NCBI GenBank assembly: GCA_003641665.1
Contig: QNBC01000003.1
Span: forward strand, 1-35,440
Direction of reading: 5' to 3'
Source of the DNA: a candidate division TA06 bacterium
GTDB taxonomy: Bacteria > Hydrothermota > 32-111 > QNBC01
DNA length: 35,440 nt
The notes below the pieces were generated by a model. It ran no database searches and was not told where the DNA came from. It saw only the letters and a list, made by a program, of their open reading frames with translations. Positions within the stretch are counted from its first letter, which is position 1. Each line of letters starts with the position of its first letter. Below, piece after piece: positions 8,647 through 35,440 of this stretch. Position numbers and translations under genes: made by a program.

Positions 8647-8669
8647 TTGTCAGTAATTAATTATAAAAT
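8641..8669 (+). promoter_or_regulatory. sigma70-like promoter TTGACA-N17-TAAAAT
   Basis: Near-consensus boxes 30 nt upstream of ATG 8700, which has SD AGGAGG. Confidence 0.7.
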
Positions 8670-8699
8670 TAAATAATCAATAAAAATAAGGAGGAGAAA

Positions 8700-17157: not shown

Positions 17158-17202
17158 ATTGTCTTTAATATCTAAACCTCCCTGTGGAATATACTTTATA
17201 TA

Positions 17203-17231
17203 ATAATATTTTAAATATCTCTATTTGTCAA
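17203..17231 (-). promoter_or_regulatory. sigma70-like promoter TTGACA-N17-TATTAT for the HD-GYP gene
   Basis: Near-consensus boxes upstream of SD AGGGAGGT (17183-17176). Confidence 0.7.
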
Positions 17232-17320
17232 TTGACGAATAAGAATTTAGGGTAGATAGGTCCGCCTGCATTAAGGTTCCGGCAGACAGGTATAGACATA
17301 TCAACCAGTAATGGAAATAA
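17226..17320 (-). repeat. Promoter-abutting dispersed repeat, copy A (30-nt palindromic insert at 17261-17290)
   Basis: 17250-17292 matches 34943-34985 at 37/43 nt; TGTCAA-N21-TAGATA. Confidence 0.85.
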
Positions 17321-17426
17321 AGGAGGTGAAAAAGCGAGTAAGATTTGGGAAAGAACTGAGCTCAAATCACTACATAAATAAGAACGGCTTCCACATTGTC
17401 ACTCTTTTTTTTATTTTAATAAATAT

Positions 17427-19317
<1,891 letters not shown>

Positions 19318-19339
19318 TTACTTCCTTAATTCCCGCTTT

Positions 19340-20371: not shown

Positions 20372-20572
20372 CTATTTTAGTATAAAATTTGCAATAATAG
20401 TCAAAATTATGGAAATAATTATGGAACTTACTATGGGGATTATTATTGTAAAATCATTCTTCTTGATTATAATATCACCCGGCATATGAAACTTTGGCAA
20501 AAATGTTAAAATCAAACCGACAATTAAAAAGAATATCCCCAGCAAGAGCATTATTTTTCCCAATCCTATCAA
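20372..20572 (-). CDS. DUF2905-family small membrane protein
   Basis: Two TM helices around PGDI...F...PI-x-SSIIIS; usual position between ruvB and queA. Confidence 0.85.
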   Translation of the reverse strand: MIGLGKIMLLLGIFFLIVGLILTFLPKFHMPGDIIIKKNDFTIIIPIVSSIIISIILTIIANFILK

Positions 20573-21591
20573 AACATTTCCTCCTGTTTATTAAAGCCGT
20601 TATACGCAATATCCAGATGTTTGAACGCAAGTTCCGTAACTTCCCTACCCCTTGGCGTCCTCTTTATAAATCCTTTCATCAGAAGGTATGGTTCGTAAAC
20701 ATCCTCTATGGTATCCTGCTCTTCTCCGATGGATGCGGCTATGGTCTTTAACCCCACAGGACCACCATTGTATTTCCTTATAATAGTAAGTAAAATTTCT
20801 CTATCCACATCATCTAACCCCTCTTCATCTATTTTTAATTTCTCGAGAGCATGGGTTGCTATGGCTTTATCAATAACACCTTCCCCTTTCACAATAGCGT
20901 AATCCCTGACTCTTTTTAACAGTCTATTTGCGATTCTTGGTGTCCCTCTGGAGCGCCTTGCAATTTCCAAAAGCCCGTCTTCTTTATATTTGGCTTTCAA
21001 TATTTTAGCAGATCGCTTTATGATTTCCAGAATATCATCCTCACCGTAGAAATTGAGACGCGAAGTGAAACCGAATCGGGATCGCATAGGAGAAGATAAA
21101 AGCCCCGTTCTTGTTGTAGCTCCTATGAGAGTAAACGGTTTAAGCGGTATTCTCACTGATTTTTCACCCGGACCATTATCTATCATTATATCGAGTAAAA
21201 AATTTTCCATGGCGGGGTAGAGATATTCTTCCACCGTGCGATTCATCCTATGAATTTCGTCTATAAAAAGAATATCCCCTTTTTTCAAATTCGTTAAAAT
21301 CCCGGCAAGATCGGCGGGTTTATCGAGAATGGGACCACTTGTAATCTTAATATCAACATCAAGTTCATGGGCGATTATGTATGCAAGCGTTGTCTTCCCC
21401 AATCCGGGAGGTCCGAATAGTAAAATATGATCCAGGGATTCGTCACGTATTTTCGCCGATTGGATAAAGACGGAAAGATTCGACTTCAAATCTTCCTGTC
21501 CGATAAATTCATTGAAACTCTTAGGCCTGAGAGCATTATCAAATTCGACATCATCTTTGGACCTAGAAGGTGTAAATATTCTTTCTATCAT
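20569..21591 (-). CDS. ruvB: Holliday junction branch migration helicase RuvB
   Basis: LRP, GPPGLGKTT, FIDEIHR, GATTR, RGTPRIANRLL, EPYL, RTPRGR. Confidence 0.98.
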   Translation of the reverse strand: MIERIFTPSRSKDDVEFDNALRPKSFNEFIGQEDLKSNLSVFIQSAKIRDESLDHILLFGPPGLGKTTLAYIIAHELDVDIKITSGPILDKPADLAGILTNLKKGDILFIDEIHRMNRTVEEYLYPAMENFLLDIMIDNGPGEKSVRIPLKPFTLIGATTRTGLLSSPMRSRFGFTSRLNFYGEDDILEIIKRSAKILKAKYKEDGLLEIARRSRGTPRIANRLLKRVRDYAIVKGEGVIDKAIATHALEKLKIDEEGLDDVDREILLTIIRKYNGGPVGLKTIAASIGEEQDTIEDVYEPYLLMKGFIKRTPRGREVTELAFKHLDIAYNGFNKQEEMF

Positions 21592-21592
21592 A

Positions 21593-22168
21593 CTACTTTT
21601 CCTGTAATGCCAATTTGATTATTTCCTCAATCGTAAGATTGGAATCTCTCTTTAAAATCTTTCCGACCTTCTTTTCAGCGTCGTTTCTCTTATATCCGAG
21701 TTGCATCAAAGCCCGAGCTGCATCGTTGAATTTCGACTCGTTTACCCTATCAGGTATCGTAACATCCACATTCAACTTATTCTTCAATTCCACAAACAAC
21801 CTCTCCCCCGTTTTTTTCCCAATTCCCTTTATTCTTATAAAACTCGAAATATCCCCTTTGGTAACATTATCATAGATCTCTTTCGGTGAAAATCCGCTTA
21901 ATATGGATAGGGCGGTTCGCGGTCCTATACCGCTTATCGAAATCAAATCAAGAAACATATTTCTCTCTTCATTTGTACCGAATCCGAATAATTCGATTTT
22001 TTCCTGTCGAATAATCATAACAGTATACAGGCTCACATGGGAATTAATTTCTGGCAATATGGATGAAACGGAAACAGGTATGTTAATTCTGTAACCAATA
22101 CCGTTTACATCAATCAGACAGGAAAGGGGGTCTTTATCTGTAAGAATTCCTGATATTCTCTCTATCAT
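21593..22168 (-). CDS. ruvA: Holliday junction DNA-binding protein RuvA
   Basis: GIGY, LFGF, HhH motifs GIGPRTAL and GIGKKT, ALMQLGY. Confidence 0.96.
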   Translation of the reverse strand: MIERISGILTDKDPLSCLIDVNGIGYRINIPVSVSSILPEINSHVSLYTVMIIRQEKIELFGFGTNEERNMFLDLISISGIGPRTALSILSGFSPKEIYDNVTKGDISSFIRIKGIGKKTGERLFVELKNKLNVDVTIPDRVNESKFNDAARALMQLGYKRNDAEKKVGKILKRDSNLTIEEIIKLALQEK

Positions 22169-22631
22169 AATCCATCAAACATCCGATTGCAATAGCACAT
22201 GCATCGGAAATATCATTCTCCTTTTGTGGAATTTCTATATTCAATAACTTCTCCACCATGTATTTTACAGCTGATTTGGAGGCATTGCCTTTTCCCGTAA
22301 CAATCTTTTTCACCTCTCTCGGGGCAAACTCTTTTACCTTCAACCCGTTTACAGACGCGGCAATAATCGCTGCTGCTCGTGCTTGACCGAGTTTCAAGGA
22401 TGATTGATAACTCTTGCCCGAAAACACCGTTTCAATTGCAAATAAATCAGGTTTTTTATCCTTTATAATAGCATCTATACCGGAGAATATCGTCATCAAC
22501 CTTACGGCAACATCCTCCTTTACGTTCGTTTTAACCAAACCGTATTCTACCAATTTGAAACCGTATTGCTTGTATTCAATGATGGCATAACCCGTATTTC
22601 TAAATCCCGGATCTATTCCAATCGCTTTCAC
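22134..22631 (-). CDS. ruvC: Crossover junction endodeoxyribonuclease RuvC
   Basis: GIDPG, AIE, LGQAR, VKK-x-VTG-x-GNASK, DISDA. Confidence 0.96.
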
Positions 22632-23386
22632 TGTTTATTTAATATTTTTTCCATGATCTCATCCGGGATGTCAAAATTTGTGTATGTATTTTGTACATCA
22701 TCGAGATCATCCAGGGCATTCATCAGTTTTAATACCGATTCCGCCTGTTTCTCATTCAATTTCACAGTTGTTTGAGGGATCTTTGTCACTTCCGCCGTAT
22801 CGTATTTTATTCCCTTTTCATCGAGGGCATTCTTCACATCAAACAATGCATGAGGCGTTGTATAAATCGTAATCGTGCCATCCTCCGTTACCATATCATC
22901 TGCACCGGCTTCAAGAGCGACTTCCATTAATGTGTCTTCATCCGTGTTCTCATCTTTGGTAATCGTTATGATACCTTTGGAATCAAACATCCAGTTAACC
23001 GATCCCAATGAACCGAGATTTCCGTTGTACTTGTCAAAAACATGTCTGACTTCGGCTGCTGTTCTATTTTTATTATCTGTTACGGTTTCCACAAGTATTG
23101 CAACGCCATGAGGACCATACCCTTCGTAGGTCACCTCTTCGTATGTAACGCCCGGTAATTCACCTGTTCCCTTCTTTATTGCTCTTTCTATATTATCACT
23201 GGGCATATTTGCCGCTTTGGCAGCCTGTATCGCATTTCTCAGTCTTGCATTCGCTTCCGGATCTCCTCCACCTTCTTTTGCAGCCATTGTAAGTTCGCGA
23301 ATCAGTTTTGTAAACACCTTGCCTCTTTGTGCATCTGCCTTAGCTTTTTTGTACTTGATGGAACTCCACTTATTGTGACCTGACAT
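22628..23386 (-). CDS. yebC: YebC/PmpR family protein
   Basis: MSGHNKW, YEGYGP-x-G, TDNKNRT, DDVQN; upstream of ruvC. Confidence 0.97.
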
Positions 23387-23429
23387 CTATACCTCCTAAA
23401 AATAGTTTGATATTCGATATTTGTATCCG

Positions 23430-23458
23430 ATATTATCATTTTATAAGCATTTTTGCAA
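23430..23458 (-). promoter_or_regulatory. sigma70-like promoter TTGCAA-N17-TAATAT for the yebC-mazG operon
   Basis: 17-nt spacer with TGn extended -10. Confidence 0.5.
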
Positions 23459-23498
23459 GTGTAAAAAGAATTGGACAAGATTAATCATCCGCTATATG

Positions 23499-23566
23499 CG
23501 AGTTTTTCATAATAAATTGCAGATGTTTTTACCATAGCGGGAATTGACTTTATTATTAAAAACTCG
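23499..23566. repeat. 18-bp inverted repeat (17/18 match) with 32-nt spacer
   Basis: cgagtttttcataataaa 23499-23516 versus tttattattaaaaactcg 23549-23566. Confidence 0.7.
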
Positions 23567-23630
23567 TTTTATTATGTTACTATTTGCCATATCTTTCTTC
23601 AACATTATGACTTTTATCTTAAAACATTAA

Positions 23631-23669
23631 TAATATTCATACCTATCTATTGAATAAAAATGCTTGACT
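23631..23669 (+). repeat. Promoter-abutting dispersed repeat, copy E (no insert, shorter spacing)
   Basis: taatattcatacctatcta followed 14 nt later by TTGACT. Confidence 0.45.
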
Positions 23670-23808
23670 TTTATTTCCTCCTTTTCATTATGAGTAATCT
23701 CCTTTTTTTAAGATTACCCCTTTTTGCATTATTTTCAATCCTTCATATGTGACATTTCGCTTTGTAATTTATATGTAACATTTTAGCATTGTAACATCAG
23801 TCCATCAT

Positions 23809-23837
23809 TTGACATCCATTTTCTTTTGTTATAGTAT
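23809..23837 (+). promoter_or_regulatory. sigma70-like promoter TTGACA-N17-TAGTAT for the OmpA-family gene
   Basis: Perfect -35; preceded by TGT(A/G)ACAT direct repeats. Confidence 0.5.
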
Positions 23838-23915
23838 TCTATAATGAAAGATTATAATCAATTCAGCGTAGCAAAAGTACTAAAAATAGTGTTTTTTCAA
23901 AAAGGAGACTTTATT

Positions 23916-24884
23916 ATGAAAAAAATAACATTGATTCTGGTAATTGCATTAATGTTTTCAACAAATCTATTTGCATTGGAAACAGAAGATATTAAAGGGG
24001 CAAAAGACAACCCTCTAATTTCGAGATTTGATAATTCCGTTATTGTCTACTATAATACCGTTAAATGGGATACCTATATTTTACCCGTTTCAAAAATCAT
24101 AAAAGTTGAAGGGCAAAATGCCTGGAAGAAAAAGTTAAAATTAGAAGGGGAAGTAAATAGAATTCAATATGTAACAGATAAAAACAACAACGCATCTTTT
24201 GTTTATATGAATTATTTGTCAGCATTAAAAAAGTCCGGTTGGGAAATACTCTTTAGTGGTAATGGCAGTAATGAACTTGGAAATTCAAGTTATGAGTGGC
24301 AATACACTATGTTTGGAGAAGGCTTGGACCTGGGGGATAAATTCGGAGGTAAATACAATTTTCGTGGCAGTGATTATGCCTATATTGCTGCAAAATTTGA
24401 GGAAAATGACACATCCTACTATGCTATGATTTACATTATTGAGAAAGATGATTTTACAATGATAAATCAAGATATAATAAAAGTTAAAAATCCCGATTTA
24501 GGATTAGTTACTGCAAAACAGTTAACCGAAAAGATAGACAAAAAAGGACATTTGGCGTTAGATGGTATTTTCTTTGAAACAGGTAAGGCTACTATTACGG
24601 AAAAGTCTATTCCTGCTTTAAAAAATATTGCTGGATATTTAAACAATCACAAAAACAAAAAGTTCTTCATTGTAGGGCACACGGACAATATGGGCAATTT
24701 TCAAGATAATATGACATTATCCGAAAACAGGGCAAAAGCTGTAATGAATGAGTTAATCAATAAATATGGTGTTGATAAAAATCAATTACAGGCTTATGGA
24801 GTGGCAAATCTATCTCCGATAACTTCCAATTCAACCGAAAAAGGAAGAGCAAAAAACAGGCGAGTTGAAATAGTAGAGCAATAA
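23916..24884 (+). CDS. Exported OmpA-family protein with DUF4892-like N-terminal domain
   Basis: SD AAGGAG then MKKITLILV signal peptide; DIKGAKDNPLISRF; IFFETG, VGHTD, LSENRA, GRAKNRRVEIV. Confidence 0.92.
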   Translation: MKKITLILVIALMFSTNLFALETEDIKGAKDNPLISRFDNSVIVYYNTVKWDTYILPVSKIIKVEGQNAWKKKLKLEGEVNRIQYVTDKNNNASFVYMNYLSALKKSGWEILFSGNGSNELGNSSYEWQYTMFGEGLDLGDKFGGKYNFRGSDYAYIAAKFEENDTSYYAMIYIIEKDDFTMINQDIIKVKNPDLGLVTAKQLTEKIDKKGHLALDGIFFETGKATITEKSIPALKNIAGYLNNHKNKKFFIVGHTDNMGNFQDNMTLSENRAKAVMNELINKYGVDKNQLQAYGVANLSPITSNSTEKGRAKNRRVEIVEQ

Positions 24885-24941
24885 ACCATACTACCAATAT
24901 TTGAATTAGCTATAAGAGGACATGTCGGTTTAAATCTATTT

Positions 24942-24970
24942 ACCATCTATTTTAAGATGGTTATTACATT
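24942..24970 (+). terminator. Possible intrinsic terminator after the OmpA-family gene
   Basis: 7-bp stem accatct/agatggt, 6-nt loop, imperfect T-rich tail. Confidence 0.3.
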
Positions 24971-25026
24971 TTATTTTGATTATAAAACTCTGAAATGATT
25001 TCAAAAGGAAAGTTATGCTGGACTTG

Positions 25027-25131
25027 TTTCAGTATATCAATTTTACCTGTTAATTATTACCATACCTGTTCGTCGAAACTTCTGTGCAGACTGATCTATT
25101 ATATACCAAAATTAAAATATTTGCTTTGACA
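25027..25131 (+). repeat. Promoter-abutting dispersed repeat, copy F (opposite strand, degenerate 30-nt insert at 25065-25094)
   Basis: Insert matches the reverse complement of the copy B insert at 22/30; cagtatatcaatt-ttacctgttaat aligns with cggtatctcaattatttccgattaat; ends in TTGACA 25126-25131. Confidence 0.7.
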
Positions 25132-25154
25132 TGTGATAAAAAATGCTTTATAAA
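25126..25154 (+). promoter_or_regulatory. sigma70-like promoter TTGACA-N17-TATAAA
   Basis: Upstream of SD GGGAGG and ATG 25177. Confidence 0.55.
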
Positions 25155-25176
25155 TTAATCATACAGGGAGGTTCGG

Positions 25177-25908
25177 ATGATTATTTATCACATTTCGGAT
25201 CTGCATTTGGGTAGTTCTTACTATCTCGACAAATTGGGTGCTTCCGTAGCGAATATCATAAATAACGATGATTGTGACATTCTCCTCGTGACAGGAGATC
25301 TTACAAGTGAAGGGCATTATTTCGAATTTCAAGCTGTAAAAAAATATCTTAAAACCATAAAGAGTAAGGAAAAACTCATCATTCCAGGTAATCACGATTC
25401 GAGAAATGCCGGTTATATAACATTCGAGAATGTAATTGGTAAGAGAAATACATTCATCATAACGGGAAATATCGCCATTCTTGGACTTGATTCAAGCGAA
25501 CCCGATCTCGATGACGGGCACATTGGAAGAGAGAACTACCCGATGATTCGTAAATTCTTTGAAGATAATGATGACAAGATTAAAATACTTTCATTGCACC
25601 ACCATCTTATCCCCATCCCGAGAACGGGAAGGGAACGCCATATACCGGTTGATGCCGGGGACGTCCTGGAACTCATAAAAGAACTCAACATACATATGGT
25701 TATAAGCGGGCATAAACATGTACCGTACATTTGGAAACTCGAAAATACTTATTTTATCACAGCAGGGACGGCTACAACAAACAGAACGAGAGGCGATCAA
25801 GCACAGTCATTTAACAAGATAATTATCAAAAATCGTAATGTAAGAGTGAGTTTTATAAATTCAAATACAGGCAATGAAAAAGAGGTATTGAATTTTAATG
25901 CCAAATAA
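25177..25908 (+). CDS. Calcineurin-like metallophosphoesterase (CpdA/Icc-like)
   Basis: Complete motifs SDLH, TGDL, PGNHD, LHHH, SGHKH. Confidence 0.92.
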   Translation: MIIYHISDLHLGSSYYLDKLGASVANIINNDDCDILLVTGDLTSEGHYFEFQAVKKYLKTIKSKEKLIIPGNHDSRNAGYITFENVIGKRNTFIITGNIAILGLDSSEPDLDDGHIGRENYPMIRKFFEDNDDKIKILSLHHHLIPIPRTGRERHIPVDAGDVLELIKELNIHMVISGHKHVPYIWKLENTYFITAGTATTNRTRGDQAQSFNKIIIKNRNVRVSFINSNTGNEKEVLNFNAK

Positions 25909-26800
25909 TGTTTATGCAGGTATAGACATAGGCGGGACATTCACAAAACTCGGTGTCGTTTCTCATGATAAGATCGTAGCAAGAAAACTAATCAAGAGCC
26001 CGACGAATATAAACGAATTCTTCCAATTGTTCGAGGAGTTAAAAGCCAATTATGAATTTACAGCTTTGGGGGTTGGTATACCTGGTATAATCGACCATAA
26101 AAATATGATAATGAAATACGCTTCGCCTTCCCTTGGCTTTTTAAATGAAAAATCTATAAAAGAGAAGATTGAAAGGATAATAAGCACTAATGTGTACATA
26201 ACAAACGATGCAAATGTTGTTACAATCGGTGAAATGATATATGGAGCGGGCAAAGGGATAAGTTCGGCGCTATGCCTGACACTTGGAACGGGAATCGGTG
26301 GAGGTCTGTATTATAAAAACAGGTTGCTGATAGGTGACAACGGATTTGCAGCAGAATTCGGCCATATTAATGTGATTGAGAACGGAACTCTTTGCTCATG
26401 CGGGAAAAGAAGAGGGTGTGTTGAAAACTATTTTTCTATTTCCGGAATTATAAATCTTGTTAGAGAAGTAAAAGGTAAAGAGCATCCTATGGAGGAGATA
26501 TTGAAAATGGCTCAAAACGGGGATAAAGATATTTTAAAAGCTCTCTCGAATGTATCATTTCTACTTGGAAAAGCAATAGGCGCCATATTACTCGTAATCG
26601 ATATAAATACAATCATCCTCGCCGGAGGACTGTCACGATTTTTCCCCTATATCAAAAATGCTGTTATGAGAGGTATAAAAGAATATTGCTACTCCTCAGA
26701 TTATGCAAACATTACAATAAAAAAATCCGAATTACTGGAAAATGCCGGAATCCTCGGCGCCGCTTACCTCGCTAAATCCCGCGGAGAAATTCTATATTAG
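25898..26800 (+). CDS. ROK family sugar kinase (glucokinase-like)
   Basis: GIDIGGT, NDAN, TLGTGIGGG, EFGH, CSCG-x-x-x-GCVE; no N-terminal HTH. Confidence 0.92.
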   Translation: MPNNVYAGIDIGGTFTKLGVVSHDKIVARKLIKSPTNINEFFQLFEELKANYEFTALGVGIPGIIDHKNMIMKYASPSLGFLNEKSIKEKIERIISTNVYITNDANVVTIGEMIYGAGKGISSALCLTLGTGIGGGLYYKNRLLIGDNGFAAEFGHINVIENGTLCSCGKRRGCVENYFSISGIINLVREVKGKEHPMEEILKMAQNGDKDILKALSNVSFLLGKAIGAILLVIDINTIILAGGLSRFFPYIKNAVMRGIKEYCYSSDYANITIKKSELLENAGILGAAYLAKSRGEILY

Positions 26801-26897
26801 TAATATTCGAATTGTCAAACTGCCGTAACAATCCCATACAATTCACATGCTACTTTTACTTTTTCTTCTCTTTAATGTGACAAAATATTAAATCTCC

Positions 26898-28349
26898 TCA
26901 AATGCCGGACAAAACATCCTCTTTCTTACTCCTTTGTCTGTATATCATAAACAAAACTATTAAAATCGGAATAACTAATAAAGTTAAACTCATTTTTCTA
27001 TCCAAAGCGATACTGATATGAAACCTATTGAAATATGAAAGTAGGTAAAAATAGATCTTCTCGGTAAAATATATCACCGCTATTATATATTTTGATAAAA
27101 TAGGGAAAAATATGTGGAATATAATTGCCAAAATACCAAGAGTTATTATGAATGATGTTAAAGGTATGAAAATTATATTGGTAATTGGGGTTATTATTGA
27201 AACTTCGTGAAAAAAATAGGTCAAAATAGGTAGTGTAAAAAGGGAGATTAAAACGCTAATCACAAATGGATACAGTACATTTTTTTGAATACTGTTTTTT
27301 AAAGGAACATTAATCAAATCATTGGAAATTAAAATCGCAAGAGTAGCCGAAAAACTAAGTAAAAATCCCGGTGTATAAATTTGGCGTGGGGATAGAAGCA
27401 AAATAATAAATCCCACGGCAAACAATAAATTATAGGAGGATATATAACGTTTTACAAGATAGGAAATCATAATCATACTTAACATCACAGATGCTCTGAA
27501 TGCTGAAACTCTGAAATTTACGAATATAAGATAAAAGCCAATTGCCATTAGAACAAACAGTGTCGCAAATTTCATATTTAAGCGAAACAATCTCGCTAAA
27601 AGAAACATTATTCCCATTATAACTGCCATGTGCAAGCCGCTCAATGCGAGTAAATGGTTAATACCGCTACTTTTAAACATATCTCGTATGCTTTTTGATA
27701 ATCTTTCCCTTTCCCCAAAAAGGAATGACATTAAGAGGCTATTGTATTCATCCGGTAATGATTCAAAAACATCTTTTCTAAAAATATCAGTAAACATCAA
27801 TAATCCATTTAACGGTTGAGAATTTCCGCATTTTAATATCTTAACATAACTGTCTCTTTTTATTGTAATTTTACCGTATATCCCGTTATTTTCATAGTAT
27901 TGCTCGATTTGATCATTGAATTTGGATATAAATCCCTTAAAGGAAATTTCATCCCCGGGAAACAGTTTATAGTAACGATTGTAATTTATTAACCGTATCT
28001 TTTTCCCTCTTAAATAATCCGGATAAAACACACTTATGTATGCTTTGTTCTTATCAATGTTAAATGTACCATCACGCAAAACTTTCCCTTGAATATATAC
28101 ATCCTCTTGCTCAATACCCGAGACTTTAGCCTTTTTTGGTAAAATAACACCAAGTGCAAAAATTATGATTATAATAACAAATTGAGAAAAACGGTGATAT
28201 GTGAATTTAAAAAGAATAAACCACAGAGCGAATAGCGATATTAAAATAATCCAACCAAAATCCAATTTGTCGGATAAAATAATACCTAAAACAAAAATGA
28301 AAAATACTTTTACACTTAAAATTGTTCTGCTATTTAAGCGATTCCTCAA
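26898..28349 (-). CDS. comEC: ComEC/Rec2 DNA-uptake channel, lacking the C-terminal beta-lactamase-like domain
   Basis: F-x-x-SG-x-x-HLLALSGLH, SAFRA, GFLLSFSAT, many TM segments; 483 aa. Confidence 0.9.
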   Translation of the reverse strand: MRNRLNSRTILSVKVFFIFVLGIILSDKLDFGWIILISLFALWFILFKFTYHRFSQFVIIIIIFALGVILPKKAKVSGIEQEDVYIQGKVLRDGTFNIDKNKAYISVFYPDYLRGKKIRLINYNRYYKLFPGDEISFKGFISKFNDQIEQYYENNGIYGKITIKRDSYVKILKCGNSQPLNGLLMFTDIFRKDVFESLPDEYNSLLMSFLFGERERLSKSIRDMFKSSGINHLLALSGLHMAVIMGIMFLLARLFRLNMKFATLFVLMAIGFYLIFVNFRVSAFRASVMLSMIMISYLVKRYISSYNLLFAVGFIILLLSPRQIYTPGFLLSFSATLAILISNDLINVPLKNSIQKNVLYPFVISVLISLFTLPILTYFFHEVSIITPITNIIFIPLTSFIITLGILAIIFHIFFPILSKYIIAVIYFTEKIYFYLLSYFNRFHISIALDRKMSLTLLVIPILIVLFMIYRQRSKKEDVLSGI

Positions 28350-28695
28350 TTTCCACTACGGTTTTGTGCAATTCGTAACGAGCCAGCCCCAGATTCTGGT
28401 TCTCTCCCTCTACAATAAGGTAAACAAAATAGAGCTCGTTTATGGGAATAATAATGTATGTGCTATAACCCGTTGTAAAAAACATCTCCATTAAGTTGCC
28501 CTTATCTCTGCTTTTAGCGACTTTATCACTATTTAAAATTATAGATGTAACATCCGCATCCATTTTCTCTATATCTATACTATCGTCTTTTTTTACATGT
28601 GCAAGTCCCATTCCGTCGGTCCCTACTATGCTTACCAGTACGGAGCCCGAAATTTTATCTAAAAGCTTATTTAATTTCTCTTCATAATTAATCAT
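28330..28695 (-). CDS. Roadblock/LC7 (MglB-like) domain protein
   Basis: 121 aa; IVGTDG, GNLME, NLGLARYEL. Confidence 0.85.
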   Translation of the reverse strand: MINYEEKLNKLLDKISGSVLVSIVGTDGMGLAHVKKDDSIDIEKMDADVTSIILNSDKVAKSRDKGNLMEMFFTTGYSTYIIIPINELYFVYLIVEGENQNLGLARYELHKTVVEIEESLK

Positions 28696-29354
28696 TACTT
28701 CTTACCTCCTTTAAATATCTTGCTAAATATCCCTCCCCTTGAAGCTTCATCTATTTTTTTCTTTTCCATAAGCGCTCTTTTATTGTGCGGATTCCACTGT
28801 AATGCTTGTTTTATATTGCTCTTATATTTTTCTTCATTTCCCATGGATTTATAGATTATTGCTATGTTCACGTACAGGTCCGCATTATCTATCTTTTGTT
28901 CAAGGGCTTTTGTTGCATATTTTAATGCTTCGTTTACATTGCCCCCGGATGACATAATCGCAAGAGCTAAAAAACTGTTCGACTCAGGGTGATTCGGTTT
29001 CATCTTTATACATGCCTTGAAATATTCAACTGCTTTCTTGAATTCTTTTTTCCCTATTGAGTTTATACCTTCCTTGAAAATTTTTGTGAAATGTTGCTCG
29101 ACATAAACATCCCCTTCATCTTTAATCCCCATTCGCAGTTTTTTGTCGTATTCGTTCCTTCTTGCTGGATCAATCAATACACGGTATGCTTCCGTTATTA
29201 ATGCAAAATTATCATTAGTTGATACCCATCCTTCTTTTGTTATCGAATTTGCCTTATCCGGATGAAACAACTTAGCAAGCTCTAAATAGGCATTTCTAAT
29301 TTCTTTGGTTGTTGCATTCTTAGGGATTTTTAAAATTGCATAATAATCTTTCAT
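28695..29354 (-). CDS. J-domain plus TPR protein
   Basis: DYYAIL, FHPDK, EAYRVL-x-D-x-x-RR-x-x-YD, then about three TPR units. Confidence 0.9.
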   Translation of the reverse strand: MKDYYAILKIPKNATTKEIRNAYLELAKLFHPDKANSITKEGWVSTNDNFALITEAYRVLIDPARRNEYDKKLRMGIKDEGDVYVEQHFTKIFKEGINSIGKKEFKKAVEYFKACIKMKPNHPESNSFLALAIMSSGGNVNEALKYATKALEQKIDNADLYVNIAIIYKSMGNEEKYKSNIKQALQWNPHNKRALMEKKKIDEASRGGIFSKIFKGGKK

Positions 29355-29363
29355 ACTAATAAT

Positions 29364-29392
29364 ATTATATAAAATTTATTGATAATTTTCAA
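29364..29392 (-). promoter_or_regulatory. Internal promoter TTGAAA-N17-TATAAT, 9 nt before the J-TPR ATG
   Basis: -35 lies in the last greA codons; no SD before ATG 29354. Confidence 0.6.
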
Positions 29393-31793
29393 GCTTCTTA
29401 ACGGATAAAATTGTATATTCATCATCCCTAAGTTTTATTTTCTCTCCGGTTTTTTTACCTTCCAGGGCTTCTCCAATATCAGAATTATAGGAAATAATAT
29501 TCTTTTCAATGTTAGATTCCCACGGTCCCAACACTTTATATACAAATTCTTCACCCTTTTTGTCTTTTAATTTCACTTCGGTTCCGAATGTTACAAAATC
29601 GCCTTTAATGTCATCGAGTTCTTTGACTATAGCATTGTTAATTTCATCTTCCAAAACTTTTATTTTATGTGATAACATTCTTTGTTTTTCCTTTGCCGCT
29701 TTGTATTCGGCATTTTCACTTAAATCCCCCATTGCCACAGCTTCACTGATACGCTTACTATTCTCCGGAATTTCAACACCAAGAATATGCTTACGCAATT
29801 TAACTTTTTCATTATAAGTACTTTTCAATGTAAAAAACGTATCTAATGCTCCTTCTTCCCTTTTCTTTTTATCAATTTTTTTCTCTATCTCTATTTCTTT
29901 TTCCTTTTCAATATCAGGGAATTCTTCGTTTACCATACCTTTCAATGTAACCTGCATTTCAACGGGCAAATTTTCAATTCTATCTATCTGTCTAATAAGC
30001 ATCCTGGCTCTATTTTCATTACCAATACTACTTACGGCTTTCTTAAAGAAAGCAAAATTATTACTTCTTATTAAATCTCTCGTTTTCTGCATCAACTGCT
30101 GATATAATTGTCTTGCCTCTTTATCTTGTTCGTTATTCGCTTCTATGGAAATATATTCATACAGTTCAAACAATTTTTCAAATAGCCTTTCAATACCAAT
30201 CTCTTCATCTCCTCCCCAGGCACCTTTCAACTTATTCTTTACTACAATCAGAAATAAATCGGGATGAAGATAAATATCGTCCAATGTGTCTTTGATTATC
30301 TTTTCTGCCAAATCCTTTTTATCATTTTTGTATAGATATTCTATGTATTGTTCTTGAACAAAAGGTGAAAACTGAGAAACGGATGTTTCCATATAATCGT
30401 CAAATCCTTCCCAAATATTCTCTGCAATTTTAAACGTCTCATAAATATATTTTGCACGTACGATATCATTCATATAGCCGTTAAGACGTTCCTTCGCAGC
30501 TACCTGCTCTCTTAAGAAATTCTCCAGGTCATATTTGTCCGGGAAAATCTTTTTGAGAAAAAAGAACGCTCGCAGATTGGGTATTGTTTTAAAAGAACTC
30601 TCTATCTGTTTCTTTTCTTCCTCATCAAGATCATTCTGTATCTTTTCAAGTTCAAATAGCCTTCTCTTTAAATCAGTTATTTTCAATATTTCATCAACGA
30701 TAGATTTACCCCCCCCTTTATTTATCGCATAATTATAACTCAAATCTTTCGTTATAATCGGGGATTTTTCACATGCTCTTTTAATTCTTTTCCACTCGTT
30801 TAACCAATCTTTTTCATCGATAAAGTAAGGGACAAAAAACGATTTTAATTCCTTTTGAGAGAGCTTTTTGTTCGCCTTTTTCAATATAACATATACTGCT
30901 TTATCAGGAGATTCTTTTATTAAATTCTTAAAATCATCTATTCTGTCGAAACGGTAAACATTATAATCGTTTTTATCAAGATGAACAACTATATTATTAA
31001 GCTTCTGTCTTTTAAATTTCTTTACCGTATTATTCTTAAATCTTATTTTTACATCATCAAAAATATAATCGACCTTTTCGATTTTACCGGTTCCAAAATT
31101 TTGATGATAAACATATTCATCTTCGTCAAATAAAATGAGATCTTCAAATACCTTAACGGCTTTCTTCAAACTATCGCATATCATCAATTTTGATATTTTA
31201 AGTAGTTTATCAAGATTTTTATGTTCTTTATATATGTTTTTATAATAATCAATAAACAACATTTTAATATTTTTATCGTTGGGATCCGTATCGAGTAGCA
31301 ACTTGAGAAATTTATAGTAGATCTCATCTTTCATATCAATATCGTTAATTACAAGATTAATAATGCTGCTCGCGAGTTCTTTATTCCCTTTCTTTGATAT
31401 GATCACTGCAATTTCGTATATCTCATCATTGGACAATTTTTTATTTTCGAGAGCTTCAAGAATATTTTCTTCGAGTTTTCCATAACTCTTTTCATGTGCC
31501 AAAGATTTCAAATATTTAAAATAATATTTCTTATATTTAATTTCATCTTTCCCCTCGTAATAATCCATTAATTTTTTCACTAATGGTGATTGTTTTTCAG
31601 ATTTATTTATAAGATAATTCAGATAAGTAAAATAATCTTCATCAAATTTCCTGGTATTCTCACAGGCATCAATGTAAGCTCTTATAATTGCAGTGGATTT
31701 CTTCCCCTTATCACTTAACTCTTTAAACAGATCGATCAGCTCATCCCATTTCTTTTCTCTCTTTAATTCTTGAATCTCTTCCGATTTACTCAT
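29376..31793 (-). CDS. greA: Long-form transcription elongation factor GreA
   Basis: C-terminal GDLSENAEY-x-AAKE, VTFGT, LGPWE, ISY-x-S-x-IG-x-AL; about 650-aa N-terminal extension. Confidence 0.88.
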   Translation of the reverse strand: MSKSEEIQELKREKKWDELIDLFKELSDKGKKSTAIIRAYIDACENTRKFDEDYFTYLNYLINKSEKQSPLVKKLMDYYEGKDEIKYKKYYFKYLKSLAHEKSYGKLEENILEALENKKLSNDEIYEIAVIISKKGNKELASSIINLVINDIDMKDEIYYKFLKLLLDTDPNDKNIKMLFIDYYKNIYKEHKNLDKLLKISKLMICDSLKKAVKVFEDLILFDEDEYVYHQNFGTGKIEKVDYIFDDVKIRFKNNTVKKFKRQKLNNIVVHLDKNDYNVYRFDRIDDFKNLIKESPDKAVYVILKKANKKLSQKELKSFFVPYFIDEKDWLNEWKRIKRACEKSPIITKDLSYNYAINKGGGKSIVDEILKITDLKRRLFELEKIQNDLDEEEKKQIESSFKTIPNLRAFFFLKKIFPDKYDLENFLREQVAAKERLNGYMNDIVRAKYIYETFKIAENIWEGFDDYMETSVSQFSPFVQEQYIEYLYKNDKKDLAEKIIKDTLDDIYLHPDLFLIVVKNKLKGAWGGDEEIGIERLFEKLFELYEYISIEANNEQDKEARQLYQQLMQKTRDLIRSNNFAFFKKAVSSIGNENRARMLIRQIDRIENLPVEMQVTLKGMVNEEFPDIEKEKEIEIEKKIDKKKREEGALDTFFTLKSTYNEKVKLRKHILGVEIPENSKRISEAVAMGDLSENAEYKAAKEKQRMLSHKIKVLEDEINNAIVKELDDIKGDFVTFGTEVKLKDKKGEEFVYKVLGPWESNIEKNIISYNSDIGEALEGKKTGEKIKLRDDEYTILSVKKLENYQ

Positions 31794-32866
31794 ACATTAA
31801 ACCTAAATTCAATTATATCGCCATCTTCTACGATATAATCCTTTCCTTCTAATTTTAATAGACCTTTTTCCTTCAAAACGCCAAAATCGGGATTATTTTT
31901 AAAATCGTTAAAATGTACGACTTGTGCTTTAATAAACCCTTTTTCGATATCCGAATGAATCTTCCCGGCAGCTTTCTGTGCTGTAGTACCTTTTTTTATA
32001 GGCCAGGCTTTTACTTCATCCTTCCCAACGGTAAAAAACGATATTAAACCAAGACGATTAAAAGTTGCTTTCTTAACTATTTCTATTGCAGATTCTGAAA
32101 CACCGAGTTCTTCCATGTATTCGGCTCTCTCTGCTTCATCCAATTGATTAATTTCCATTTCCAGTTCCCCACACATATCAACAACTCCGAAATTCAGTTT
32201 TTCCCCCAAATCTTCTACCTGTTTTTTTGTCCCTTCATCAATCGTTTCCTCCCCTCTGTTAATGACTATAAGAAGTGGTTTCAAAGACAAAAGATTGTAA
32301 CCTTTCAAGAGGTGTAAATCTTGCTCGGATAGCGATAGTGTCCTTAAAGGAATTTCATTTTCGAGAGATTGCTTTAATCTTTCGAGAAGAGGAAACTCCC
32401 TTTTTTCATCCCCTACAAGGTTCCCTTTCTTCTTTTCCAGTCGTTGTAATCTCTTTTCAATAATCGAGTAATCACTAAACATAATCTCTGAATCAAGAGT
32501 CAATATATCTCTTAAAGGATCCGGTTCAGGAAATCTGTAAATGACATCCTCTCGATTGAAATACCTCACAATCTCAAGAATTACATCAATATTCTTTGCA
32601 AACTCAACAACTTTCGTACCCCAATTTTCTCTTTCCTCTTCCGATATAGCCGGCATATCGGTAATATTCATCGTTGCATATTTTAATTTTTCCGGCTGAA
32701 ATATGGAATTCAAATAATCAATTCTCTGATCTTTTAGTTTTACAACGGCGGTATTGGGTTTGGAATCTTTTAGGGAGTAAGAAGTTACTTCTACGGACAA
32801 TCCTGTAAGTGCATTAAATATAGTGGTTTTACCTGTATTTTCAAGCCCTATTATTCCGATATCCAT
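31790..32866 (-). CDS. ychF: YchF/Obg-family ATPase (divergent)
   Basis: GIIGL-x-N-x-GKTT-x-FNALT, SFFTVG-x-DEVKAW, AAGKIHSD-x-EKGFI, EGKDY-x-V-x-DGD-x-x-x-FRFNV. Confidence 0.92.
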   Translation of the reverse strand: MDIGIIGLENTGKTTIFNALTGLSVEVTSYSLKDSKPNTAVVKLKDQRIDYLNSIFQPEKLKYATMNITDMPAISEEERENWGTKVVEFAKNIDVILEIVRYFNREDVIYRFPEPDPLRDILTLDSEIMFSDYSIIEKRLQRLEKKKGNLVGDEKREFPLLERLKQSLENEIPLRTLSLSEQDLHLLKGYNLLSLKPLLIVINRGEETIDEGTKKQVEDLGEKLNFGVVDMCGELEMEINQLDEAERAEYMEELGVSESAIEIVKKATFNRLGLISFFTVGKDEVKAWPIKKGTTAQKAAGKIHSDIEKGFIKAQVVHFNDFKNNPDFGVLKEKGLLKLEGKDYIVEDGDIIEFRFNV

Positions 32867-33771
32867 TTTCCATTAATCTTTCTAAATCTATATGCATTTA
32901 ACATGCTATCGGAGATAGGAAATTCGTAATCAAAGAGAGTTTTGGCTTCTCCACTATATCCCACTATACTTTTCTTCTCTTTATCGTAATAAATATGAAA
33001 CAGTGCAATGCTTCCCATTTTACCATATGTTCTAAAAATCACCGTATGTGTGTTTTTGTCCTCAATGGGTTTATTGATTCCTCTTCCGTTAAATCCACCG
33101 AGAATAAAATCTATTCCGTTGACATTCTCAGCAATGTACTTATCCCTCTGATCCCCTATATCCGTAACAGCAATTATTATATCAACATTATGAGCTTTCA
33201 ATATTGAAACCATTCTTCTTGCAGATTCCAATTCATTTTCAATGTCGATTTTATCCCAGTATTTACTCTGATTGAATAACTTCAAATACTGCGAAACCAG
33301 GCCAAAAATACCAATTTTAATTCCTTTTCTTTCAATTATCTCATACTGTTTTATTGGAAAATCGGCAAATATGGCATTTGACGAAACATAAGGAAATTCA
33401 CCTACTATTGATTTTAAATCTGTCCCCATAGAGATATCATAGACACCGAAATTGATAAAATCGTAATTTACATCTTTCAAAAATTTTCTAATTTTCTCTG
33501 TCTTTTCCACCGGATAGAAGGGGTTGTCCGTAAATATATTCCCGTTTGAGATAAGAATCAAACTACTGTCTTTCTCTCGCTCCTCATTAACAAACGGAAT
33601 AAACGATGCCGCATTTCCTATGGTAGGAGGAAAGGAAGGATTCATGTAAGTAGCATATTCCGGCTTCAAGTGTCCTTGAATGTCTCCGGTAAATACGATA
33701 CTTATATCGGAAATACTGTCGGCAAAGACGAACAGAGGTAAAAATAAAAATAAAACTAATATTCTCTTCAT
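32851..33771 (-). CDS. Exported 5'-nucleotidase-like metallophosphatase domain, degenerate active site, no C-terminal domain
   Basis: Signal peptide; GIKIGIFGL, VDIIIAV, GIDFILGG follow the UshA N-terminal fold. Confidence 0.78.
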   Translation of the reverse strand: MKRILVLFLFLPLFVFADSISDISIVFTGDIQGHLKPEYATYMNPSFPPTIGNAASFIPFVNEEREKDSSLILISNGNIFTDNPFYPVEKTEKIRKFLKDVNYDFINFGVYDISMGTDLKSIVGEFPYVSSNAIFADFPIKQYEIIERKGIKIGIFGLVSQYLKLFNQSKYWDKIDIENELESARRMVSILKAHNVDIIIAVTDIGDQRDKYIAENVNGIDFILGGFNGRGINKPIEDKNTHTVIFRTYGKMGSIALFHIYYDKEKKSIVGYSGEAKTLFDYEFPISDSMLNAYRFRKINGKWISE

Positions 33772-34325
33772 TTAATCCTCAATTCTTTTGTGGAACGTTT
33801 TAATATGGGAGTAAAGAATTTTTCTTCATAGTATCGAGCGGCTTCAGGTGACGTAATCGCAACACTTGACTCATCATTTTGGGACATTGCGTAGTAACTC
33901 CAGTTTGTGGACCCCAAAACGACAATGGTGGAATCCACGATAAACATCTTCGCATGTGTAGTTGTATCCAAATCATCATACAATGCTTCTACACCATGTG
34001 CAGTAAGATATTCAACGGCATCCATATTTTGTCTCGTACTATTTTTTGCAAAATTTGAAGCATCAACTATTACCCTAACCTTCACTCCTCTGTTATGTGA
34101 ATAAATTAAAGCATCAAGTATCTCGGTTATGGGATCTCCTTCCCTATTAAGGGAGGGATGAATTTCAAGCATTGCTACATCAATGGTTTTACCGGCATTT
34201 TTAATCAAGTTGATTGTATAAGGTAAATAATCTCTGTTATTTAAAACGGTAACGCTTTTGGCGGGAAAACCAAACAACTGAAAAGAAAATAAAATCAGCA
34301 AAGTAAAAAATATAAATCGTTTCAT
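33768..34325 (-). CDS. Exported single-HKD phospholipase D / Nuc-like protein (paralogue 2)
   Basis: Signal peptide; RGVKVRVIVD; HAKMFIVD-x6-GSTNWS; N-x-E. Confidence 0.9.
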   Translation of the reverse strand: MKRFIFFTLLILFSFQLFGFPAKSVTVLNNRDYLPYTINLIKNAGKTIDVAMLEIHPSLNREGDPITEILDALIYSHNRGVKVRVIVDASNFAKNSTRQNMDAVEYLTAHGVEALYDDLDTTTHAKMFIVDSTIVVLGSTNWSYYAMSQNDESSVAITSPEAARYYEEKFFTPILKRSTKELRIK

Positions 34326-34888
34326 AATAGTTCCGGTTCTTTAAGAGATCTCTTTCTAATCTCGGAGAAATATCGTTCAAAATCACTGTAAACCGATTTT
34401 GAAAAAACAGCCACAGAAGCTTCTCGGTTCAATTCAAGGGCATAGTAACTCCAGTTCATTGAACCAACAATGGAAATATAATTATCGATAAGTATTATTT
34501 TATTATGGGATGTAATCATTCCCGGATCGTATAGAATATTTATTTTGTTATTCGATTTTTCCTCTATCCACTTGGCAAATTCAATATTTTTTCTCGTGTT
34601 ACTCATATTCCATGAAGAAACATCTAAAATCATAGTTACTTTTACACCTCTATCCATCGCTTTTAAAAGAGCATCGTAAATCTTATCATTTATGGAATTA
34701 GAATATTTTTTATATATTCTTGCTGTAAAAATAAGAACATTAATACTATCCTTGGCTTCGTTAATTAAATTGATTAACTTGGGAGTGTACTCTCTATTGT
34801 TCATGGGTATTATACTGTCGCACGGTAATGCATTTATAGAGGTTAGAGACACAAACGTAATAACGAAGAACAGAATAACTTTTTTCAT
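34322..34888 (-). CDS. Exported single-HKD phospholipase D / Nuc-like protein (paralogue 1)
   Basis: MKKVILFFV signal peptide from ATG 34888; RGVKVTMILD; HNKIILID-x6-GSMNWS; NRE. Confidence 0.9.
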   Translation of the reverse strand: MKKVILFFVITFVSLTSINALPCDSIIPMNNREYTPKLINLINEAKDSINVLIFTARIYKKYSNSINDKIYDALLKAMDRGVKVTMILDVSSWNMSNTRKNIEFAKWIEEKSNNKINILYDPGMITSHNKIILIDNYISIVGSMNWSYYALELNREASVAVFSKSVYSDFERYFSEIRKRSLKEPELL

Positions 34889-34895
34889 ATCTTCC

Positions 34896-34924
34896 CTTAT
34901 ACAATATTTTTTATCTGTTGTCAA
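34896..34924 (-). promoter_or_regulatory. sigma70-like promoter TTGACA-N17-TATAAG, 7 nt before ATG 34888
   Basis: Perfect -35, 17-nt spacer, 5/6 -10. Confidence 0.5.
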
Positions 34925-35037
34925 TATAAACAATAAATTTCGGGGTAGATAGGCCCGCCTGCACTAAAGTTTCGGCGGGCAGGTACAAAACATATTAATC
35001 GGAAATAATTGAGATACCGAGATACTATAAACCAATC
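34919..35037 (-). repeat. Promoter-abutting dispersed repeat, copy B (best preserved; 30-nt insert at 34954-34983)
   Basis: TGTCAA-N21-TAGATA; stem gcccgcc/ggcgggc; alignable with copies A, D and F. Confidence 0.85.
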
Positions 35038-35241
35038 ATACATTTATGTTTAATATGTCATATTATTGAGTTTGTATTTATTTCCGAGACAATACATCTT
35101 TCGTTACCGGAAATAGGTAAACCTCCCCAACTACAGCTCCACATTCTTCAATAATCTGTAATCCATATTAATGCTATGAAATCAGTTTTTTGCATTTTCA
35201 ATAAACATACATTATTTTCTTTTTCAAATAAAGCTATTCAC

Positions 35242-35440
35242 CTACTTCATTTTAAAGAATTTTTTCGTAAATTCCCTTTCCCCATCAATTACTATCATAT
35301 ATGACCCTTGTGGAACAACTTTCCCCTCGTTATCGCATCCGTTCCATATGTAGAAGTCACCATTCGTCTCAAATCGCTTAACCTCTCTGCCGATTAAAGA
35401 GTAGATTTTTCCTTTTATGATATTCTTGTTTTTCCTATCA
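35242..35440 (-). CDS. 3' end of a gene entering from the right edge; FlgD-Ig / T9SS-like C-terminal domain
   Basis: My translation: DRKNKNIIKGKIYSLIGREVKRFETNGDFYIWNGCDNEGKVVPQGSYMIVIDGEREFTKKFFKMK-stop; absent from the ORF track. Confidence 0.8.
   Translation of the reverse strand, partial: DRKNKNIIKGKIYSLIGREVKRFETNGDFYIWNGCDNEGKVVPQGSYMIVIDGEREFTKKFFKMK

Follow-up and report, generated by a model that had tools for sequence, protein, structure and literature searches.

Why should a short dispersed repeat stand, in one orientation, at a fixed distance from the -35 boxes of promoters that serve unrelated genes? The question is raised by a 35,440-nucleotide stretch of DNA (the window) from a candidate division TA06 bacterium, which is contig C3 of G000, a metagenome assembly of 184 contigs, 1.75 Mb and 36% G+C with a completeness of 97%. 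On the plus strand of the window, TKTCAA is followed 21 nt later by TAGATA at four places (139-171, 8588-8620, 17226-17258 and 34919-34951), exactly as a first-pass annotation had located them, and three of the four read GGGTAGATA(A/G)G. TGTCAA on this strand is the reverse complement of TTGACA, and TAGATA is the core of module A (GGTAGATAGG, window plus strand), the end of the repeat that faces the promoter. The core of the repeat is either A-B (26 bp) or A-H-B, in which a 30-bp GC hairpin, H, is inserted; hairpin modules resembling repetitive extragenic palindromic (REP) elements then follow.

The answer that we favor, and to which we give an even chance of being right, is that the repeat is a promoter-docking element of the type of a miniature transposable element with inverted repeats (MITE) or of a REP that may in addition function as an upstream promoter site. 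The -35 and the -10, like the spacers on either side of the -35, consist of unique host DNA, and it cannot be the element that supplied the -35. To judge from the sequence comparisons, the element docks beside existing promoters and does not create them, and its copies appear to descend from one another as units and to come and go at promoters that were already there. Throughout, contig numbers (C) refer to G000 unless prefixed with another genome, G001-G004 are other genomes of the same family (two genera), and L-numbers denote loci in relatives or metagenomes.

Spacing and orientation relative to the -35 box

The four matches to TKTCAA-N21-TAGATA in the window compare with a mean of 0.02 in 100 dinucleotide-preserving shuffles, none of which reached four, and the whole genome holds 26. 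A histogram of TATCTA-to-TTGA(C/A)A distances, which the first-pass annotation had proposed, does peak genome-wide, at 20 nt (15 cases) and 21 nt (26 cases); every other distance from 0 to 60 nt was met 0-5 times. Module A was also scanned across the genome with CCTATCTACC, allowing at most one mismatch, which gave 133 sites. TTGAC began 18 nt away at 20 of these and 19 nt away at 33 (53 in total), all other distances between 0 and 60 nt being represented by 0-2 sites each. Two controls, the reversed motif and the opposite orientation, were flat and lacked any distance peak. Even when the alignment was anchored on GTAGATAG alone, with the upstream side unconstrained, (A/T)GTCAA(G) emerged at a constant offset, together with a reverse-complement TATAAT-like hexamer 17 nt beyond GTCAA. 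Chance cannot account for this spacing between A and the -35. No secondary peak one helical turn further out (+10 or +11) was present among the 133 A sites, which leaves a single register of 18-19 nt. An extra C after A' (19/32) accounts in part for the 19-nt class, and no compensation was seen between the A-to--35 distance and the length of the -35/-10 spacer.

The register is tied to whole promoters. Composite copies, defined as A followed by H or B, number 61 in G000, and each was scored for a -35 with at most one mismatch and a -10 with at most two at the 18-19 nt register. By this measure 45 of the 61 face a strong -35/-10 pair, as against 33 of 5000 random positions, and when the register was shifted by 5-9 nt at the same loci only 5 of 366 trials found one; exact TTGACA is present at 32 of the 61. 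The linkage of the copies to promoters thus stands, as does the earlier identification of the window hexamers as minus-strand -35 boxes of σ70-type promoters, with a -10 some 16-18 nt further on and a gene start behind it, often 6 nt after the -10.

Divergent promoters provide a further view of the arrangement. At the divergent pairs on C1, C6, C53 and C102 a separate copy faces each promoter, and at a fifth pair, on C24, a single compact A-H-A' serves both. True A...A' pairs are confined to such intervals between divergent promoters. These five pairs are hard to explain except by docking at each promoter separately.

Anatomy of the repeat and the promoters it faces

Read along the plus strand of the window, the parts come in the order of a leftward start codon that often lies just 6-8 nt from the -10, the -10 in reverse complement, a unique spacer of 16-18 nt, TGTCAA, a unique spacer of 18-19 nt, and A; beyond A lie the optional H, then B (TATGAACATATTAACC), a semi-conserved linker and REP-like hairpins such as C (GAGATTCCGAAACAAGTTCGGAATGAC). 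The focal copy, upstream of an operon whose first gene encodes a phospholipase D (PLD)-like protein, is laid out as follows, from sequence unless another basis is given.

34944-34953, plus strand: module A (GGTAGATAGG), the promoter-facing end (sequence and divergence of public contigs)
34954-34983, plus strand: module H, the optional 30-bp GC-rich hairpin (sequence and fold)
34984-35000, plus strand: module B, TACAAAACATATTAATC (consensus TATGAACATATTAACC)
35001-35037, plus strand: linker and decayed C-type (REP-like) module (GAGATACCGAGATAC...); the intact C, GAGATTCCGAAACAAGTTCGGAATGAC, has 55 copies
34925-34943, no strand: unique 19-nt spacer between the -35 and A, sharing no sequence with other spacers
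34919-34924, minus strand: -35 TTGACA of the PLD-operon promoter
34896-34901, minus strand: -10 TATAAG, separated from the -35 by 17 nt and from the ATG at 34888 by 7 nt
34322-34888, minus strand: first gene behind the promoter, PLD-like protein (PF13091; Pfam)

The focal promoter therefore reads TTGACA-N17-TATAAG-N7-ATG from 34924 down to 34886 on the minus strand, and its mRNA is predicted from this layout to be leaderless.

Modules of this kind are far more frequent in G000 than in a shuffled version of the genome. Fuzzy counts were 132 against 45 for A, 61 against 0 for H, 100 against 17 for B and 55 against 0 for C. Certain architectures recur (AH 21, ABC 10, AB 9, AHB 7, AHBC 4, AHC 4 and ABD 3), about 25 copies being A-B without H, and the overall copy number is some 60-75. 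The weaker homology that had been noticed outward of the motif resolves into H, B and a degenerate C-type hairpin, and membership of a dispersed MITE/REP-like repeat is supported. On the element side, near-identity between copies often extends beyond 60 nt, and contigs frequently break off within the repeat. On the promoter side, copies share no sequence in the spacers flanking the -35, including those that scarcely differ on the element side; that the spacer varies in sequence and not in length, being unrelated from copy to copy and always 18-19 nt, had been observed correctly. The near-identical flanks, the recurrent module orders and the unrelated spacers together argue for the copying of whole units and against evolution as binding sites.

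The boundary itself could be placed with contigs from four public DNA runs aligned to positions 15441-35440 of the window, the matching runs being labeled as hydrothermal vent, marine sediment or marine metagenomes. Seven contigs of run X1 and nine of run X3 match the window rightwards from 34944 and diverge leftwards of it, so the repeat starts at the GG of A and not at the -35. This bears directly on one of the two models first proposed for the motif, in which a MITE ending in TGTCAA supplies outward-facing -35 boxes and thereby creates hybrid promoters. The exact TTGACA at 32 of 61 composite copies would suit such an element. Against it, the boundary lies at 34944 and not at 34919, the 18-19 nt that separate A from the -35 bear no relation from one copy to the next, and spacer, -35 and -10 are unique to each locus; a close relative (G003, below) keeps the same -35 and spacer without the element. 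Promoters that lack A also have good -35 boxes: among credible leaderless promoters, defined by the -10 and ATG, exact TTGACA occurs in 26 of 63 without A and in 7 of 11 with A, a sample too small to separate the two groups. We regard the seeding of -35 boxes by the repeat as scarcely credible.

The hairpins invite a different thought, namely that A-B is the start of a divergent small RNA, with TAGATA as its -10 and the hairpins as its body, and that the constant distance simply reflects back-to-back promoters. TAGATA does fit TAnnnT, hairpin modules do lie beyond it, and the stems of C-type hairpins, compared by eye, vary between copies yet stay complementary (ATTCCGAA/TTCGGAAT, ATGCTGAA/TTCAGCAT and ATCCTGAA/TTCAGGAT). 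However, no conserved -35 or TGn stands upstream of TAGATA, no U-tract terminator follows the hairpins, and the distal modules differ completely between genera. H, a CCCGCC...GGCGGG stem with a conserved 14-nt loop, shows no double compensatory changes in its stem, and the loop is conserved as much as the stem. Its DNA fold at the focal copy reaches -8.7 kcal/mol (z -1.7), and fold z-scores overall are only -1.0 to -2.4. Rfam gave no match on the whole window at gathering thresholds and none on 34800-35440 at E up to 1, and a known RNA was rejected. A small RNA is, on this balance, highly improbable. The ends of the core show some symmetry of their own, A and the end of B forming an imperfect inverted repeat (GGT..ATA.GT / AC.TAT..ACC, 8 of 13 positions in a consensus read by eye), and the minimum free energy fold of the 17251-17306 copy pairs A with B.

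Further mosaic modules are abundant in G000, where they lie in many intergenic stretches, among them those downstream of the copies on C11, C49, C65, C105, C112 and C180. They include GTCACCCTGAA(N)TT(N)TTTCAGGGTCT and a 24-nt ATGACAAAGTCAAGTGAAAAATGA unit present in 23 copies, and the arrays run to several hundred bases.

The other copies in the window, with the promoters and genes that they adjoin, range from intact to decayed.

164-188, plus strand: decayed A-B copy (GATAGATACG at 164-173, CATGTAATATTAACC at 174-188)
139-144, minus strand: -35 TTGAAA of a leftward promoter at the contig end
8613-8622, plus strand: variant GGTAGATAAG of module A, with a truncated remnant after it
8565-8593, minus strand: promoter of the gene at 7611-8549, -35 TTGACA at 8588-8593 and -10 TATTGT at 8565-8570, kept in G002
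17251-17306, plus strand: A-H-B copy (A 17251-17260, H 17261-17290, B 17291-17306)
17203-17231, minus strand: promoter of an HD-GYP-type gene, -35 TTGACA at 17226-17231 and -10 TATTAT at 17203-17208, with A 19 nt upstream
15418-17157, minus strand: HD-GYP-type gene (PF13487 HD_5; Pfam)
23642-23669, plus strand: partial decayed copy (A' CCTATCTATT at 23642-23651, 12 nt, TTGACT at 23664-23669), off-register
25046-25107, plus strand: decayed copy (B' 25046-25064, H' 25065-25094, A' CTATTATATACC 25096-25107)
25126-25154, plus strand: metallophosphoesterase promoter, -35 TTGACA at 25126-25131 and -10 TATAAA at 25149-25154, 18 nt after A'
25177-25908, plus strand: metallophosphoesterase gene (PF00149; Pfam)

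The two copies in the opposite orientation had been described as related but with altered spacing. Both are real, though decayed, and the altered spacing holds only for the one at 23642-23669, with its 12 nt; at 25046-25131 the 18 nt are kept, A' carrying an internal 2-nt insertion and ending 18 nt before the TTGACA. Positions 8588-8680 form a compact divergent promoter pair with one A-type remnant (8613-8622); 19 nt separate this remnant from the leftward -35 and, likewise, from a rightward TTGACA that serves an LTD/Por_Secre_tail gene at 8700. The second spacing is a coincidence of layout, as the orientation of the remnant fits only the leftward promoter. The promoter, spacer and decayed A at 100-190 recur almost letter for letter on C98, C12 and C76 (TTTTCAAGTA(C/G)TATTTTTTGTTTTCC...), a promoter region that is itself duplicated, along with paralogous genes or else as redundancy of the assembly. 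A T-run at 23702, upstream of an OmpA-family gene, contains two extra T in contigs of all four public runs, a length polymorphism. No tRNA was found in the window by ARAGORN.

Leaderless transcription seems common in this lineage, since start codons peak 6 nt after the -10 hexamer genome-wide (63 cases, against 6-28 at the individual distances between 4 and 31 nt). The layout TTGACA-N17-TATAAT lying 6-7 nt before ATG can be seen in many genes, and others have ordinary GGAGG leaders; examples of the leaderless type in the window are 34886-34924 (minus strand) and about 23809-23846 (plus strand), the latter ahead of the OmpA-family gene at 23844. A promoter with A on C76 (gene near 4500) holds a run of 9-10 G inside its -35/-10 spacer, which is kept across the two genera, in the G004 orthologue L025. 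Slippage in such a tract could alter the length of the spacer and result in promoter phase variation.

The genes behind promoters that bear A are of many kinds. Pfam was run on 24 such products (20 from other contigs and 4 window genes), 19 of which matched and 5 of which did not. The matches comprise two GGDEF proteins, the HD-GYP-type HD_5, a response regulator with PAS and GAF, a histidine kinase, transporters (SNF, ABC, MgtE and CorA), a class V aminotransferase, GAPDH, a carboxyltransferase, PPDK, and YceD, two pilin-like (N_methyl), TPR, DUF3307 and PLD-like proteins. Among tRNA genes, 3 of 37 were scored as having A by script, so that three tRNA transcription units carry the element; judged by eye, A-like sequence also stands at other spacings before two further tRNA genes, on C28 and C146, and the majority of tRNA promoters show a clear TTGACA-N17-TATAAT without A. 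Credible leaderless promoters carry A in 11 of about 74 cases. Occupancy is thus roughly 10-15% of promoters, without functional theme, which argues both against a specific regulon and against an enhancer of strong promoters in the manner of an UP element. The unrelated genes served and the scarcity of A at tRNA promoters likewise leave no regulon logic.

Gain, loss and persistence among relatives

The composite pattern GTCAA-N19-GGTAGATAGG, scanned with its reversed form as a control, is found in all four other genomes of the family, in both genera, and in none of 36 other genomes of the class or phylum; the reversed pattern was absent everywhere. The second genus retains the A-B core (GGTAGATAGGTATAGACATACTTACC), and its distal hairpin modules are completely different. 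At 16 of 17 loci in that genus a TAnnnT hexamer follows the -35 by 15-18 nt, the promoter strings being read by eye. Its intergenic regions have a different mosaic module set as well (CATTGCGAGGAGTGAAACGA... and GAGAGAGGAAAGGATTAAATCC...).

Comparison of orthologous promoters, as the first-pass annotation advised, did reveal empty sites. A metagenome scan with the PLD protein yielded two loci, of which L059 is the informative one, and here A-B lies 19 nt from TTGACA. In G003, which is 94.5% identical to L059 over 2117 nt, the same 19-nt spacer, -35 and -10 are present, the 3' end of an upstream gene replaces the element, and homology to L059 begins at the last base of A'. G004 presents a third state, with a decayed tandem A at 18 nt and homology that reaches only to 8 nt upstream of the -35. 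Another promoter has A-B in G004 and not in G003, the break falling 1-2 nt from the edge of A. Seven loci were queried between these two genomes; three of them (L025, L027 and L029) gave no information, the G003 contig stopping at the promoter or short of it. Across genera, the homologue in G000 of the gene upstream of the empty G003 site lies inside C21, away from the PLD operon, and is uninformative. When 13 element-bearing promoters of relatives were compared with their G000 counterparts, 6 of the latter had the element in register (on C116, C76, C52, C56, C61 and C24), 3 had it decayed or off-register, and 4 were without it, two of these four being of weak orthology (45-46% identity). Presence/absence polymorphism is thus seen between L059 and G003, between G004 and G003, and in 4 of the 13 cross-genus pairs. 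No contig of the four public runs joined across an element within 15441-35440, although contigs cannot show absence.

On the reading that we favor, the repeat would be, now or until recently, a non-autonomous mobile element of MITE/REP type. Its insertion would be aimed at the upstream edge of a promoter, the -35 box, or RNA polymerase bound to it, being the point from which distance is measured, and the sub-families A-B, A-H-B and A-B-C would be copied whole to new promoters. A, at -64 to -55, would probably double as an upstream promoter element, and candidate binders of it are the element's own DNA-binding or recombinase protein or a host factor touching RNA polymerase. It is conceivable, though we hold the idea doubtful, that integration reads the transcription machinery and not the DNA sequence; a recombinase, a transposase or the element's DNA-binding protein would then recognize promoter-bound σ70-RNA polymerase, or the -35 hexamer, and set A at the upstream edge of the polymerase footprint (about -55).

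A number of observations weigh against a docking element, and they concern its edges, its enzyme and its persistence. As to the edges, the G000 assembly is fragmented at exactly these repeats, and copies in other contexts may be under-assembled. The breaks between close genomes are not all at the edge of A: two lie about 8 nt upstream of the -35, one lies inside A-B and one at about -15. One G004/G003 pair has A-B in both genomes with a different distal spacer half and different modules, another shares A with B replaced, and a third differs above about -15. Upstream DNA thus appears to turn over fast, the edge of A being a recurrent junction and not the sole one. The target duplications that the first-pass annotation had suggested looking for, alongside a transposase with matching ends, did not materialize: the flanks of short A-B copies show no sign of a target-site duplication, and no filled site was readable to both flanks.

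Such junctions suggest another explanation, in which the edge of A is a site-specific recombination junction, resembling the attI/attC sites of integrons, and it is promoter-plus-gene units that move and not the repeat. The same spacer, promoter and operon are indeed joined to different upstream DNA in L059, G003 and G004, breakpoints recur at about -55 and about -43, and tyrosine recombinases (PF00589) occur in all five family genomes. The two PF00589 matches in G000, however, are presumably no more than the usual Xer pair would give, the 3' ends of the units showed no second recombination site, the local gene order beside the elements is conserved between G004 and G003, and divergent pairs each have their own copy. 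We consider a junction of this kind improbable.

As to the enzyme, family searches for the docking element's mobilizer were negative in G000. No Y1/RAYT transposase (PF01797) was found there by a search that was positive in 6 of 14 control genomes, rve (PF00665) and DDE_Tnp_1 (PF01609) were likewise absent, and TnpB-type proteins (PF07282) were absent from G000 and found in G003 only within the family. An autonomous partner with matching ends was not found by these searches, G000 being fragmented and absence not proven. The four TnpB/Cas12f-like genes (PF07282) of G003 lie on its contigs C210, C322, C140 and C52 (L081-L084), and the other four family genomes have none.

One mobile element does reside in these arrays. 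A gene for an IS110-family recombinase (PF01548) occurs once each in G000, G001 and G003 and was not found in G002 or G004. The G000 element covers about positions 1-1260 of C125, with its gene on the minus strand (a 333-aa open reading frame), and related copies are L073 (G003:C276) and L075 (G001:C31). In G000 and G003 it is inserted at GTCAT|T, the foot of REP-like (C-type) hairpin modules, and in G003 some 28 nt separate it from a promoter-docked A-B. TTGACA is found at its right end and TATAAT at its left; joined, the two ends would give TTGACA-N17-TATAAT. PMC11208160 describes such an arrangement for IS110 circles. The left non-coding end, of about 250 nt, could encode a bridge RNA. This element is not the evident mobilizer of the docked repeat, since its ends are unlike A and B and its target is different, and it is best seen as a neighbor in the arrays; this too counts against docking. 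Two further ideas were set aside. CTTGAC alone does not suffice as the insertion target, since of the 23 copies of GTCAAG in the C-extension module just 1 has an A-like module after it. Nor does the spacer act as a guide in the style of TnpB, IscB or bridge RNA, as the longest spacer match to the copy's own element averaged 7.0 nt, against 6.9 nt for other copies.

As to persistence, the sharing of 6 of 13 promoters across genera exceeds the approximately 2 expected at about 15% occupancy (binomial P = 0.0075), and at the shared promoters A-B is nearly invariant and the spacers are unrelated. Purifying selection on a functional site fits this pattern at least as well as repeated homing does. 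In addition, tandem A copies on C27, C37, C56, C80 and C148, identified by eye, lie 9-11 bp apart and resemble phased protein-binding sites. Cross-genus persistence, the near-invariance of A-B and the phased tandem A together suggest a function for A at about -60, and persistence above chance makes it probable that A is also an upstream promoter element; alternatively, homing might be so specific that sites are constantly refilled.

These same observations sustain the main rival, the other model first proposed for the motif, in which A is purely cis-regulatory. A would then be the site for a family-specific global DNA-binding protein at about -60, in a class I-like position, or for an accessory factor of RNA polymerase, with H, B and C as incidental repeats. 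The position fits, as A covers about -64 to -55 with its center near -60, and the strict spacing and orientation to the -35, the single A-H-A' that serves both divergent promoters on C24, and the decayed A variants that stay in register are all what a binding site would lead one to expect. What does not fit is the rest of the element. Near-identity over 26-56 bp goes far beyond the needs of a binding site and, with shared sub-families in which H is present or absent, points to copies that were derived from one another and did not converge. Only the 18-19 nt register is used, with no peak one helical turn out; the genes served are without common function and few tRNA genes are among them; the same promoter is intact without the element in the 94.5% identical relative; and no candidate protein was found. 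A purely regulatory A is, in our estimation, unlikely.

Comparison with known systems

Small intergenic repeats such as REPs and MITEs are usually seen as loosely placed passengers, and here a single register and orientation is held at dozens of promoters by a docked family that spans two genera of an uncultured lineage and supplies no promoter hexamer. If A is a protein-binding site, it would represent a large lineage-specific promoter layer spread by copying and not by point mutation, that is, regulatory sites distributed by repeats in bacteria. If insertion is instead directed by the promoter or by bound RNA polymerase, it would amount to a new principle by which mobile DNA in bacteria is targeted, and might be turned into a tool that puts cargo at promoters. 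Either way, the motif offers a precise way of approaching promoters and leaderless transcription computationally, in a group without a cultured member. Open full-text literature yielded no description of the motif, of WOR-3 promoters, or of repeats at a constant distance from -35 boxes.

The closest structural likeness is to REP, REPIN and BIME (bacterial interspersed mosaic element) sequences, which are also short, abundant, lineage-specific intergenic repeats with stem-loops in mosaic arrays. REPs are described as ending in GTAG (PMC3733652). That tetranucleotide lies inside A, 5-6 nt from the stem of H, yet some 25 A-B copies have no H. Such hairpin-less copies, and the failure to find a RAYT/Y1 transposase in a genome that is 97% complete, set the docked repeat apart from the REP/RAYT system. 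To our knowledge, REPs have not been reported at a constant distance and orientation from -35 boxes, and our literature searches surfaced no such case.

Correia of Neisseria, BOX of Streptococcus pneumoniae and ERIC are likewise small, non-coding, modular intergenic repeats near gene starts that may affect expression. These either carry promoter hexamers or lie at variable distances; the docked element has neither hexamer and keeps to one register, with 18-19 bp between it and the -35.

Class I activator sites, such as that of CRP at -61.5, and UP elements resemble A in their position upstream of the -35, their strict helical register and their occurrence at many unrelated promoters. Unlike a class I site, A is a non-palindromic 10-mer within a copied unit of 26-56 bp and uses one register only; unlike an UP element, it is 50% G+C and not A/T-rich, and it is found at few tRNA genes.

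IS110-family elements insert site-specifically into REP-like repeats, and one copy lies within the present arrays in both G000 and G003. The inferred target of that element, though, is the foot of a hairpin and not the edge of a promoter, its ends differ, and it was not found in G002 and G004, which carry the docked repeat.

Finally, yeast Ty3 integrates at Pol III start sites and Tf1 at Pol II promoters, by known tethering of integrase to transcription factors. These are eukaryotic retroelements, unlike a 26-56 bp bacterial repeat for which the family searches yielded no mobilizing enzyme, and the likeness, an analogy, would lie in placement relative to the transcription machinery and not to DNA sequence. 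Should integration of the docked repeat indeed read that machinery, it would be a bacterial counterpart of Ty3-type promoter-tethered integration, and some 10-15% of the promoters in this lineage would share an upstream module that has perhaps been co-opted.

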